This document shows, piece after piece, positions 16,076-19,647 of a stretch of DNA of 34,342 nucleotides. Under the pieces are notes generated by a model that searched no databases, was not told the DNA's origin, and saw nothing but the letters and a program-made list of their open reading frames with translations. The position numbers and the translations under genes were made by a program. Every line of letters starts with the position of its first letter. The stretch's first letter is position 1. The DNA lies in the NCBI GenBank assembly GCA_964437545.1, contig CAYTHH010000001.1:118036-152377 (forward strand). Direction: 5' to 3'. This DNA is from an uncultured Candidatus Saccharibacteria bacterium. GTDB lineage: Bacteria; Patescibacteriota; Minisyncoccia; Minisyncoccales; GWA2-46-15.

Positions 16076-16819
16076 CTATCTTGTCAGAATCTTGGGTTCT
16101 TTGGAAGTAATAGCTATCATATCTTCAAAATGACAAGCTAAAGAATTATCAGTAGTTTTATAGGCAAAACCGTCCTTAGCTTTTTCCAGCTGCCAACTCC
16201 CAACTGTTACCATTGGCTCAATGCAGATAACCATGCCTGGCTTGATTTCCGGGCCCGTGCCTCTTTTGCCAAAATTAAGAACCTGAGGCTCCTCGTGAAT
16301 TTCTTTGCCAATACCATGGCCGCAAAGCTCTCTGACAACGTTAAAGCCATTAGATTCAGCTATATCCTGAGTAATCCATTCAATGTCGCCAATATGGTTC
16401 CCTGGCTTGGCATATTTAATAGCTGCATCTAAAGCTTGCTTAGTAACCTTAATAAGCTTTTTTTGAAGTTTGTTGGGTCTGCCCACTACCGCTGTCCTAG
16501 CCATATCAGCCTGATAACCCTGATAACAAAGCCCTAAGTCAAAAGAAATCATATCCCCTATCTTTAAAACCCGATCTGATGGCAAGCCATGAACAACTTC
16601 TTCATTAATAGAAACGCAAAGAGAATTGGGAAAACCGTCATAACCTTTAAAAGACGGCGTACTGCCCGATTCTAAAATGAGACGCTCGGCAAGCTCGTCT
16701 AATTCTATGGTTTTAATGCCTGGCTTGATCTGCTCGGCGATCTTTTTCATGATCTGAGCCAAGATTTGGCCGGCTTCAGCCATAATTTGGATTTCTTTCC
16801 GCGTTTTAATGTTAATCAT
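16076..16819 (-). CDS. map: Methionine aminopeptidase type I
   Basis: SINEEVVHG.P, DMART, GHGIG..IHEEP, IEPM, HFED. Confidence 0.97.
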   Translation of the reverse strand: MINIKTRKEIQIMAEAGQILAQIMKKIAEQIKPGIKTIELDELAERLILESGSTPSFKGYDGFPNSLCVSINEEVVHGLPSDRVLKIGDMISFDLGLCYQGYQADMARTAVVGRPNKLQKKLIKVTKQALDAAIKYAKPGNHIGDIEWITQDIAESNGFNVVRELCGHGIGKEIHEEPQVLNFGKRGTGPEIKPGMVICIEPMVTVGSWQLEKAKDGFAYKTTDNSLACHFEDMIAITSKEPKILTR

Positions 16820-16887
16820 TTGTCTTATTAATATCTTTTATCAATATTTTTTATTTCATTGTTTTTTATTCATTTAAGACAAATCGC

Positions 16888-16925
16888 CATACCCACTTTT
16901 TCACGATCGTAATAATTTGGGTATG
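16888..16925. repeat. 38-bp palindromic repeat, downstream copy
   Basis: CATACCCACTTTTTCACGATCGTAATAATTTGGGTATG; 34/38 identical to 17479-17516. Confidence 0.9.
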
Positions 16926-16933
16926 ATAACAAA

Positions 16934-17476
16934 TTAAATAGCTTCAACCTCTTCTATTAAAAATACCCGTACTGATTTTTCCAGAAAAAGTCCTTGGGAT
17001 AATTTTTGCACTTTTTCCAGAACATCATAGGGAGATATCCAAATACTCTTTTGAAACATTTGAAAGCCCAGGCTCCGCAAAAGTGAACGAAGCCGATCTC
17101 TAATTTTTCTTCTTTTCTCAGGAATATCAAATACTACCATCACCCATTTACCATCCGATCTTTTCTTCTTTTCCGTTAATTTCATTCTGATTCGTAAAAT
17201 TTTCTCTGCCCCTCGAGGAGTTATCAATACCCCCTTTTTTCCTTTAATTTCTTTGACAGTAACGAAACCTGCTTTCTTTAAACGATAAATTAGTTTGGAA
17301 AGATTTCTCTTTAATTTTTTTTTCTCGAATCTGCGTCGAACCTGAATCATTTCAGGCCACAATCCTTCTTTCATACTGCGGGGAACTCCAAAAATAATGT
17401 CGCCAAAAGCCTCATCAATGCTAACACAAAGATCAAAAATATCACAAAGTAATTCTTCCGAAAAAGATATTTTCAT
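16934..17476 (-). CDS. PaaX-like protein: wHTH plus Cas2-like ferredoxin domain (often annotated CRISPR-associated Cas2)
   Basis: IYRLKKAGFV...ITPRG (wHTH); DGKWVMVVFDIPEKRR..RD.LR..L..LGF...QKSIWISP. Confidence 0.85.
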   Translation of the reverse strand: MKISFSEELLCDIFDLCVSIDEAFGDIIFGVPRSMKEGLWPEMIQVRRRFEKKKLKRNLSKLIYRLKKAGFVTVKEIKGKKGVLITPRGAEKILRIRMKLTEKKKRSDGKWVMVVFDIPEKRRKIRDRLRSLLRSLGFQMFQKSIWISPYDVLEKVQKLSQGLFLEKSVRVFLIEEVEAI

Positions 17477-17478
17477 TA

Positions 17479-17516
17479 TATACCCATTCTATCACGATCG
17501 TAATAATTTGGGTATG
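17479..17516. repeat. 38-bp palindromic repeat, upstream copy, overlapping an extended -10
   Basis: TATACCCATTCTATCACGATCGTAATAATTTGGGTATG; minus strand reads TG-A-TAGAAT 9 nt before ATG. Confidence 0.9.
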
Positions 17517-17534
17517 GTATGAAATTATAGAATA

Positions 17535-18260
17535 CTACTTTGCTTTTTTACCTAATGCTTTTAAGATATTTTTAAAAACTATAGCTGGAGCCGGAGAACC
17601 GTTGATTTTTTTCACTAGAATGCCTTGCTCTTTAAAGTAACTAACCATGGGCAAGGTGGTATTTTTATAGACTCGCAAGCGCTCCTTGATGATTTGAGGA
17701 TCGTCCAAACCTTTTCTCTTGAGTAACTTAGAGCCATCTAAAGGACAATTCTTCAGATTAGCTGTTTCTTTAGAAAATAGTATGGGATGGCGCATTAATT
17801 CGCATATCTTGCGATGAGAATTCCTGAAAATGCTTTCTTGAGCTGAAACTTCAAGTAAAATAACCTTAATATTTTTAACGCCGTAAAGTTTTTTCAGAAA
17901 CGGCATTAAATCTTTTGCCTGGTCAACTGAACGAGGACTGCCAGCTAAAAGCAAACTTTCCCCTTTCTTAAAATATTCAGAAATCTTTTCGCTCATTAAA
18001 AAATTGACAAAAGGATCGCTATTCAAAAGACCAGTCTGCCATCTTTTTTTCTCATCAGCCAGAAAATACTTTTTGCCCTTAACAGCAATAAAATCATTCT
18101 TGCTGGCACTCATCATTTTGGCTTCAAGAACCTTGCTCGTCTCGAGATAATACAAGCTAAACTGATCAGCTAAAAGTTCGGCCTGAGTTCCTTTGCCAGA
18201 ACCCGGAGCACCCATTATTATTACTACTTTTTTCTGGTTCTTTGATTGAACTTTTCTCAT
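17535..18260 (-). CDS. adk: Adenylate kinase
   Basis: P-loop GAPGSGKGTQA, GSPRS..QA, LID region; position after secY. Confidence 0.9.
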   Translation of the reverse strand: MRKVQSKNQKKVVIIMGAPGSGKGTQAELLADQFSLYYLETSKVLEAKMMSASKNDFIAVKGKKYFLADEKKRWQTGLLNSDPFVNFLMSEKISEYFKKGESLLLAGSPRSVDQAKDLMPFLKKLYGVKNIKVILLEVSAQESIFRNSHRKICELMRHPILFSKETANLKNCPLDGSKLLKRKGLDDPQIIKERLRVYKNTTLPMVSYFKEQGILVKKINGSPAPAIVFKNILKALGKKAK

Positions 18261-18369: not shown

Positions 18370-19647
18370 CTAGAAAGTATCGTATTCTCTCATTTCCAGT
18401 TGGGCATTGATGGCATTCAGAGTTTCCAAGACCACGCTAACAACAATTAAAAGCGAAGTGCCGCCAACCAAAAATTGAAAAGATTGCACCCCGGTTAACC
18501 CTTGGACAATTGAAGGCATAACCGCGATCAACCCCAAGGACAAAGCGCCAACCACCAGAATCTTGTTTAAAACAGAAGATAGAAATTCAGCCGTCGAACT
18601 CCCTGGCCTGATGCCGGGAATAAAGCCGCCCATTTTCTGCAAGTTTTCAGCAATTGATTTGGGATCAAAAGTAACCATGGTATAGAAAAAGGTAAAAACG
18701 AAAACAAGTAAAAAGTAGAGGACGCCATGGATCCAAGGATCTTGGAAAAAGCTGGAAACCCCGACAAAGAACTTGCCAACGTTGCCAGGAGAGCCAACAA
18801 AAAAGTTGGCAATCATAGTTGGAAACAAAAGAAAAGAAATCGCAAAGATAATCGGAATCACTCCGGCCGGATTAACATTAATCGGCAAGTAGGTTGAAAC
18901 TCCGCCATATAGCTTATTGCCCCTGACTCTTTTGGCATAAGAAACCGGAATATTTCTCCGAGCTTCAGTAATCAAAACTACACCGGCAATAATGGCAATT
19001 GAAGAAATAAAGAAAAGAATGTAAGAAAGTAGCTTAGTAGGATCATAAACTAAAGCCATTTGCCTGATACTGTTTGGAAAATCAGCAATAATACCGGCGA
19101 AAATCAGCAAAGAAATACCGTTGCCCATTTTCTTTTCAGAAATCAATTCCCCAAGCCAAACCAGCAGCATACTGGCAGCAGCCATTGTTAAAAGAGAAGA
19201 AAACATTAATAAAGGCGATAACTCACCGATAATTTGCTGTCTTTTGAAAACGATCAACATTGAATAGCCCTGTAAAAAAGCTAAAGGCACGGTTAAAATC
19301 CGGCCATACTGGTTAAACTTCTGTCTTCCCTTCTCCCCTTCTTCTTTATAAAGTTTTTCCAGAGCTGGAAAAATCATTGTCAGCAACTGTAAGATAATGG
19401 TGCCGGTAATATAAGGACCAACGCCAAGCATAACAATCGAGAGGTTGTCTAAAGCACCTCCTGAAAAAATATTCAATAGTCCAAAAAACTGATTACCTTC
19501 GAGAAACTGCCTTAGTTTATCAGTTTCAATTCCGGGAATTGGAATATTGGCCATAATTCTGAAAATGATAAAAACCCCTAAGATAAATAGAATCTTGTTC
19601 CTTAATTCTGATACTTTGAAAATTTGTAAAAACTTTTTATACCACAT
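18370..19647 (-). CDS. secY: Preprotein translocase subunit SecY
   Basis: LGVGPYIT, GNGISLLIF, AGVIPIIFA, FIPGIRPG, GGTSLLIVV. Confidence 0.99.
   Translation of the reverse strand: MWYKKFLQIFKVSELRNKILFILGVFIIFRIMANIPIPGIETDKLRQFLEGNQFFGLLNIFSGGALDNLSIVMLGVGPYITGTIILQLLTMIFPALEKLYKEEGEKGRQKFNQYGRILTVPLAFLQGYSMLIVFKRQQIIGELSPLLMFSSLLTMAAASMLLVWLGELISEKKMGNGISLLIFAGIIADFPNSIRQMALVYDPTKLLSYILFFISSIAIIAGVVLITEARRNIPVSYAKRVRGNKLYGGVSTYLPINVNPAGVIPIIFAISFLLFPTMIANFFVGSPGNVGKFFVGVSSFFQDPWIHGVLYFLLVFVFTFFYTMVTFDPKSIAENLQKMGGFIPGIRPGSSTAEFLSSVLNKILVVGALSLGLIAVMPSIVQGLTGVQSFQFLVGGTSLLIVVSVVLETLNAINAQLEMREYDTF

Follow-up and report, generated by a model that had tools for sequence, protein, structure and literature searches.

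How did a gene for a 180-aa protein come to lie between adk and map, and how is it related to the two copies of a long palindrome that bracket it? The question is raised by the window (the whole stretch of DNA analysed, 34,342 nucleotides), for which a preliminary description, made from the sequence alone, offered two readings: an excisable one-gene cassette, or twin operators bound by the winged helix-turn-helix (wHTH) of the encoded protein itself. This protein, a winged helix followed by a Cas2-like domain, will be referred to as mini-PaaX, a name coined here. The genome under study (G000; assembly of 524 kb in 15 contigs, 95.7% complete) was compared with its nearest relative (G003) and with other relatives (G001, G002, etc.).

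The locus and its bracketing repeats

The minus strand carries all the genes of the region (secY, adk, the 180-aa ORF and map, in that order; Table 1). Two copies of a dyad of the form ATACCCA-N7-ACGATCGT-N7-TGGGTAT bracket the 180-aa gene. Taken as 38-mers (16888-16925 and 17479-17516), the repeats are 34/38 identical, with an identical run of 25 nt and a start-to-start spacing of 591 nt, just as originally described, and in register their similarity reaches 48 nt at 88%. The ATACCCA and TGGGTAT arms were recovered at both sites; at three mismatches or fewer, the dyad pattern occurs twice in the window and in none of 100 dinucleotide-preserving shuffles. The inserted segment comprises, from the adk side to map, 19 nt, a palindrome, 3 nt, the gene, 9 nt, the second palindrome and 69 nt; the upstream 38-mer thus stops 2 nt short of the ATG (at 17476) and the downstream one starts 8 nt past the stop codon (16934-16936), also as first noted. 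On the other hand, the “extended -10” placed at the upstream repeat had to be given up: its TATAAT overlaps the ATG itself, with no TGn preceding it. A consensus scan yielded no minus-strand promoter fitting the mini-PaaX gene and no terminator at the cassette, so classical promoter occlusion is not evident.

Table 1. Features of the adk-map locus (positions in the window) and unlinked palindrome copies in the same genome (contig:position).
Feature	Position	Strand	Evidence or remark
secY	18370-19647	-	ORF
adk (adenylate kinase), upstream of the insertion	17535..18260	-	ORF; tblastn to relatives
Inserted segment, adk stop to map start, ~715 nt	16820..17534		Lineage-specific
Upstream 36-nt palindrome, probable operator	17480..17515		3 nt from start codon
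mini-PaaX gene, 180 aa	16934..17476	-	ORF, Pfam, NCBIfam, AF2, Foldseek
Winged helix-turn-helix, about aa 42-100	17177..17353	-	AF2 model, Foldseek
PaaX_M / Cas2-like domain, aa 105-176	16949..17164	-	Pfam PF20803, AF2, Foldseek
Downstream 36-nt palindrome	16889..16924		9 nt past stop codon, 69 nt before map
map (methionine aminopeptidase), downstream of the insertion	16076..16819	-	ORF; 89% identical to G003 protein
Solo palindrome S1	C1:9576		Between sugar-kinase-like and aldolase-like genes (by eye from sequence)
Solo palindrome S2	C1:87626		In frame inside rnhB; encodes S-Y-P-F-S-H-D-R-R-K-M-G-I
Solo palindrome S5	C4:40190		Between ORFs resembling tatD and leuS (by eye)

The encoded protein

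The initial assignment of the gene as wHTH plus Cas2-like was borne out. PaaX_M (PF20803) matches aa 105-176 with an E-value of 1.7e-23 (82.9 bits, cut-off 24), followed by CRISPR_Cas2 (PF09827; E 1.1e-6, 29.1 bits, cut-off 23.8); the NCBIfam model TIGR01573 (cas2) scores 35.4 bits (cut-off 24.5), and PADLOC Cas2 models match down to 2.5e-9. The PaaX equivalog model TIGR02277 reaches 29.2 bits, far under its cut-off of 264.55. No N-terminal PaaX domain is listed by Pfam at E <= 1, and the PaaX_C effector domain is absent, as the protein stops at aa 180 and PF08223 gives no match. Neither a Y1_Tnp or other transposase domain (Pfam) nor a recombinase fold (Pfam, Foldseek) was found, and PHROGs returned no match. 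The AF2 model (mean pLDDT 78, and 89-97 in the Cas2-like part) consists of an N-terminal helix, a winged helix (H42-49, H53-68, the hairpin E72-77/E80-85 and H87-100) and a beta-alpha-beta-beta-alpha-beta domain; in a Foldseek comparison with the PDB it comes closest to E. coli PaaX (8a39; E 1.3e-4, 125 columns), with VapD next and many Cas2 chains after that.

An alignment of 60 family members has D117, R126, Q142 and S144 in every sequence and displays the Cas2-type motif F-D-I-P-E ... Q-K-S-(I/V)-W; the invariant Cas2-type Asp would permit nuclease activity of the Cas2-like fold. The two closest database proteins are 89% (P0002) and 84% (P0003) identical, and family members are labelled Cas2, PaaX or hypothetical in the databases. 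A protein search of the genome contig collection with mini-PaaX gave no relative.

Gene plus palindromes across the family

Twenty of the 41 genomes examined, counting G000, contain the family; their matches number up to 10 per genome (in one of 0.6 Mb), at 27-43% identity to the query. The family comprises 4,634 clusters at 50% identity with E <= 1e-3 (937 with E <= 1e-10). The preliminary description had proposed looking for paired palindromes around homologues. For this, 60 loci were gathered, in which a profile identified 61 family genes among 241 ORFs, and the best ungapped match between the 200-nt upstream and downstream flanks of each ORF was scored (threshold >=14; fifteen ORFs were dropped for short flanks). 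A shared flank segment was found for 46/61 family genes, as against 6/165 neighbouring ORFs, and the expected pairing is therefore a property of the family, although 15/61 members have no such segment. Four of the six positive controls stem from family cassettes; three are antisense ORFs inside family genes, and one is an ftsW beside a family gene with the same palindrome on both sides.

Most of the segments so detected are dyads of some 36 nt, in several cases perfect ones, and their cores include CGATCG, GCGATCGC, CGTACG, CCATGG, GCTATAGC and CATATG. Their arms differ between paralogues, so that usually one long palindrome is private to each gene. In 56 of 61 strong dyads, the central 6 nt or more form a perfect palindrome, which is expected of a symmetric dimer on duplex DNA and would not be needed by a hairpin loop. 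Besides, unlinked copies matching the linked ones occur in several relatives: two flanking and two solo palindromes in G006 (all 36/36 identical), two and three in G003, and two and one in G010; G008 has one copy with 2 mismatches. The five solo sites inspected in relatives all lie between called ORFs. A downstream palindrome is present in 32/43 cases with a co-directional next gene and in 7/10 with a convergent one; given the latter, it is not simply an operator of the next gene. Covariation of core type with protein subfamily was set aside as a test of binding: flanking sites are inherited with the gene, and such covariation would track the gene tree anyway. A LAGLIDADG-like ORF (motif L-A-G-F-I-D-G-D-G, by eye) was also noticed in G006 (contig C24, L119:353-826), ~700 nt from a solo TTCGTAAA-type palindrome.

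Palindrome copies in the genome under study

Exactly five copies of the ATACCCA palindrome are present in G000 (two flanking and three solo), and no copies bearing one to four substitutions were found in this assembly. When the ten half-sites are compared, the 7-nt arm and the 4-nt half-core never change and each of the seven spacer positions does; spacer pairing is weak in the five copies (3-4 of 7 Watson-Crick pairs), and their flanks share no homology past the palindrome edge. Invariant arms and core with variable spacers are more readily explained by protein contacts at three blocks than by a hairpin or a recent copy. As RNA, the five copies are predicted to form hairpins of -9.5 to -17 kcal/mol (z -2.0 to -4.9); the block-wise conservation is nonetheless better fitted by protein contacts than by RNA structure. 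At three mismatches or fewer, the pattern was found in 1 of 40 relatives (G003, in rnhB only), and among public genome and metagenome contigs only in that same rnhB and in a 100%-identical copy of the G000 C4 site.

The genome holds 21 long dyads, as against 0-2 in shuffles, with at least three classes besides ATACCCA, and only one family match among 2,700 ORFs; long palindromes thus persist in G000 without a cognate protein in the assembly. Four near-identical dyads of type TTGAATAATCTCACGATCGTGAGATTATTCAA lie between ORFs (C4:13178, C7:13943, C10:7295 and C4:42750), one of them 23 nt past the leuS stop, and no cognate family gene for this class was found in the G000 assembly. The peptidyl-tRNA hydrolase gene, pth, contains in frame a further dyad of 36 nt (C5:9077-9112; core GCCATGGC), which resembles the palindromes flanking family genes in G003, G004 and G006; pth is the second essential gene with an in-frame palindrome.

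The first such gene is rnhB, where the palindrome occupies a variable linker of RNase HII. A ACGATCGT-centred sequence is found at the same rnhB position in 7/8 genomes of the genus, in different states: the palindrome is identical in G000 and G003, a 46-nt dyad with other arms is present in G002 and G004, just the core and short dyads are left in G001, G006 and G007, and G005 and more distant relatives have no insert. By eye, one of the G004 paralogues is flanked by a palindrome with the arms and core of the G004 rnhB copy; for the G002 copy, there is no such match with either of the two paralogues found in that genome. The rnhB genes of G000 and G003 have a DNA identity of 0.90-0.98 over ~120 nt round the palindrome and 0.4-0.8 elsewhere, a peak that suggests DNA-level selection or recent conversion. 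G003 keeps this ATACCCA copy, yet a close mini-PaaX homologue was not found in its assembly, which is 90% complete (best identity 36%). As a separate observation, a family cassette lies directly upstream of rnhB in G011 (C6:32992-34247) and in G027; rnhB of G011 is, moreover, longer by a segment located farther down the gene.

Insertion, gain and loss

That adk and map normally adjoin, as stated in the preliminary description, was confirmed in 10/10 other genomes of the taxonomic family: the two genes range from an ATGA overlap to a separation of ~112 nt, with no gene between. The adk gene matches those of the relatives at 30-83% identity (tblastn), and map adjoins it every time; even the nearest relative, with the Map protein of Table 1, has an empty junction. 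Judging from this gene order, the gene and palindromes between adk and map are an insertion. The same holds for two of the solo copies, S1 and S5, each an insertion at a tight gene junction and absent from 3/3 aligned relatives: at S1, G003, G005 and G002 do not have ~70 nt that include the palindrome, and at S5, tatD and leuS overlap in G003, G002 and G004, with ~129 extra nt in G000. No target-site duplication was recognisable at these three insertions (cassette, S1 and S5).

The cassette reading had led to the expectation of a single palindrome left at empty adk-map sites and of an excision or circle joint. No palindrome is present at any of the 10 empty junctions. Eleven lake-water DNA runs hold the stretch (no RNA runs are listed among them), and in the contigs of four such runs the cassette is intact and bridged, with no deletion, circle or joint; since contigs drop rare variants, excision at low frequency may have escaped notice. 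Two peculiarities of this junction in relatives may be recorded. In G006 (L037:1390-1560), the start of map (its first ~50 nt, with the start codon) is directly repeated between adk and map, the two copies lying ~60 nt from each other, which may be the scar of an event at the same junction. In G001, map (C3:247905-248711) matches in two pieces (residues 1-161 and 156-247), suggesting an insertion or a frameshift.

Elsewhere, cassettes are largely stable. Six orthologous cassette pairs are syntenic across species (in one of them, the proteins are 96.8% identical and the DNA 83%), and the neighbours are housekeeping genes such as murB, ftsW, a trpS/tyrS-type synthetase gene, mnmA, recR and rnhB; no integrase or transposase was found among 96 scanned neighbours of 60 cassettes. 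Synteny, protein conservation and housekeeping neighbours indicate that most copies are vertically inherited and kept under selection. For 11 of 60 relatives' cassettes, the two neighbouring genes adjoin in G000, which gives about nine places to compare. At two of them the junction is tight and empty (5 and 12 nt), with no dyad; C5:30243 has palindromes and no family gene; and the others are likewise free of dyads. At C5:30243, the same two neighbours enclose a family gene in G003, G004 and G010 (the latter of another genus). In G000, the place is occupied by a tandem repeat (C5:30236-30530; period 121 nt, 2.3 copies, 87% matches) in which each 121-nt unit carries a ACGATCGTGGG-type palindrome, and no coding remnant of the family gene was found there (tblastn, E <= 10). 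By this comparison, G000 has lost at C5:30243 a gene held by three relatives and has kept the palindromic repeats; more broadly, it looks like a genome that lost most cassettes but kept some sites.

Interpretation

Of the two readings first offered, that of twin operators bound by the protein's own wHTH is the one we favour, in view of the private paired palindromes, the matching solo copies in four genomes and the PaaX fold. The one-gene cassette survives as a unit of gain and loss, absent from 10/10 relatives at adk-map and with the gene lost at C5:30243, and not as an element caught in excision. With moderate confidence, we propose that a PaaX-like protein devoid of the effector domain binds operators on either side of its gene as well as a few at a distance, and that gene and sites are gained and lost together at gene junctions. 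The 180-aa protein would be a PaaX-like DNA-binding protein cut down to a winged helix and a Cas2-like domain, probably a dimer joined through the latter, by analogy with PaaX. It would read the 36-bp dyad via the two outer arms and the central core; with sites on both sides of its gene, it would set its own level and the transcription from adk into map, whether by occlusion, roadblock or looping, and the three further genomic sites would be additional targets. Gene and sites entered between adk and map as one unit, and such units and solo palindromes come and go at gene junctions in this lineage. Several observations sit less well with the operator reading: no promoter-like sequence fits the gene, the rnhB copy falls within a coding frame and the remaining solo copies within operons, downstream palindromes also occur before convergent genes, 15/61 family genes have no shared flank segment, and long palindromes persist in G000 without a cognate protein in the assembly, as does the ATACCCA copy of G003 without a close homologue found there.

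Mobility brought about by the protein itself is an unlikely alternative. In it, the two palindromes are the ends of an element, which the protein with its wHTH and Cas2 fold would bind and itself nick or synapse, in a REP/RAYT- or IS-end-like manner, so that the cassette moves and solo palindromes are seeded, some of them in frame. The insertions speak for it (the cassette absent from 10/10 relatives, S1 and S5 from 3/3 aligned relatives each), as do the multicopy and patchy family (20/41 genomes, up to 10 matches per genome), the difference in cassette presence between G000 and relatives at about nine places, the loss of the gene with palindromes kept at C5:30243, the invariant Cas2-type Asp117 and the parallel with the layout of G000's own RAYT-like gene with flanking palindromes. 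Nevertheless, near-identical cassette copies within one genome are absent (paralogues are 27-75% identical, and their palindromes differ), orthologues are syntenic across species, target-site duplications are not recognisable, empty sites have no palindrome, the contigs of four runs show no joint, and the protein has no recombinase fold by Pfam or Foldseek. In its most explicit form, to which we give a similarly small chance, a REP/RAYT-like system would be built on a Cas2 fold, the winged helices holding two palindromes and the Cas2-like domain, with its invariant Asp, nicking them; a parallel with repeat duplication in CRISPR spacer integration is a more distant possibility. If such mobility were real, one-gene units and solo palindromes would be inserted and removed at junctions, even in the frames of essential genes, in streamlined CPR genomes.

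Two other explanations take the protein out of its central place or away from DNA. The palindromes could be generic REP-like elements spread or kept by another factor, with mini-PaaX merely lying between them or acting as a secondary binder, which we regard as decidedly improbable; candidates for that factor, with the same low standing, would be the RAYT-like Y1 transposase of G000 or a methylase/restriction system reading a CGATCG-type core. Several other dyad classes of the same architecture coexist with one family gene in G000, a Y1_Tnp/RAYT-like gene does exist at C8, and the cores are restriction-site-like 6-8-mers. Against this, pairing is specific to family genes (46/61 vs 6/165), each paralogue has private arms, and the palindromes flanking the RAYT-like gene are a different 23-mer, confined to contig C8. 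It is also very doubtful that the repeats are RNA hairpins of a polycistronic transcript, serving in processing, stability or translation control, and the protein an RNA-binding protein or RNase. All five G000 copies are in transcribed positions (within operons or inside a gene), hairpins of -9.5 to -17 kcal/mol (z -2.0 to -4.9) are predicted, and the PDB titles of some Cas2 and VapD entries call them RNases; on the other side, the spacers fail to keep pairing (3-4 of 7), in 56/61 dyads the palindrome runs on through the centre, as no loop would require, the arms are sequence-invariant and not covarying, a consensus scan found no terminator-like site, and the best fold match is a DNA-binding repressor.

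Under the favoured operator reading, the module is of interest in several respects. CPR/Patescibacteria genomes are considered to encode few regulators; with 4,634 clusters and up to 10 matches per 0.6-Mb genome, the mini-PaaX family may be one of their main DNA-binding families. Each member has its own probable site alongside, which would make the family a collection of ready-made protein/site pairs for the study of specificity evolution and possibly a source of orthogonal repressor/operator parts. The case of G000 shows that even the conserved secY-adk-map cluster can take up a unit of this kind, and that its palindromes can arise by exact insertion where genes overlap and, in rnhB, within the reading frame, all this in genomes with almost no recognisable mobile elements.

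Comparison with known systems

No description of the mini-PaaX/palindrome module was found in the papers searched. The closest match in fold is PaaX, the phenylacetyl-CoA-responsive repressor of E. coli W (8a39), in which a winged helix is followed by a Cas2-like middle domain; the AF2 model and the Foldseek alignment suggest the same order for mini-PaaX, for which Pfam lists the middle domain and no N-terminal PaaX domain. PaaX is described as a repressor made of a wHTH, a dimerisation motif and a C-terminal domain, repressing its own promoter, and its E. coli site as the long-spaced inverted repeat TGATTC-N27-GAATCA (PMC9493321). The mini-PaaX dyad, ATACCCA-N22-TGGGTAT, is a long-spaced inverted repeat too. 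In contrast to PaaX, mini-PaaX has no C-terminal effector-binding domain (180 aa vs 305-316 aa) and no paa genes nearby, its site has a conserved palindromic core and occurs on both sides of the gene, and its family is multicopy per genome.

Cas2 and VapD, small proteins of ferredoxin-like fold, resemble aa 105-176 in sequence and fold, with the Asp that closes strand 1 and a Q-x-S-(I/V)-W motif in common. Mini-PaaX differs from both in its fusion to a winged helix, and from VapD in having no antitoxin-like partner. Cas1 (PF01867) gave no match in the 95.7%-complete G000 assembly, while controls matched, and a crude k-mer scan of G000 for CRISPR-like arrays gave none (just a 57-nt tandem repeat). 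From IS elements and MITEs, the cassette is set apart by no recognisable target-site duplication, no flank homology past the palindrome and no transposase domain. Integron cassettes are one-gene units bounded by imperfect palindromes (attC), and the present unit resembles them in being so delimited; unlike them, it has two full sites per gene, no apparent attI context, empty locations without a site, and housekeeping neighbours, with no integrase among the 96 scanned.

In REP/RAYT systems (Nunvar 2010; Bertels and Rainey 2011), copies of a palindrome flank the transposase gene and recur at scattered places in the genome. The mini-PaaX gene shares this arrangement (two flanking and three dispersed copies, and likewise in G003, G006 and G010), but mini-PaaX is not a Y1/HUH transposase, each palindrome class has 3-5 copies and not hundreds, and no REPIN doublets were seen. 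G000 itself holds a classical REP/RAYT-type layout on contig C8 (C8:22029-22816; L129:1217-2004): a gene for a 255-aa Y1_Tnp / REP-associated tyrosine-transposase-like protein (H-F-H motif; Y1_Tnp of Pfam at 36.4 bits, and NF047646 at 30 bits, which is below cut-off) has on each side the same perfect palindrome of 23 nt, which bears no relation to the ATACCCA dyad. Contig C8 also carries, within 5 kb, another copy of this 23-mer and a variant of it with 4 mismatches. Rickettsia palindromic elements, about 100-150 nt long, lie in frame inside genes, and the palindromes in the housekeeping genes rnhB and pth are alike in this sense; those described here differ in being 36 nt long, low in copy number and linked to a cognate DNA-binding gene.
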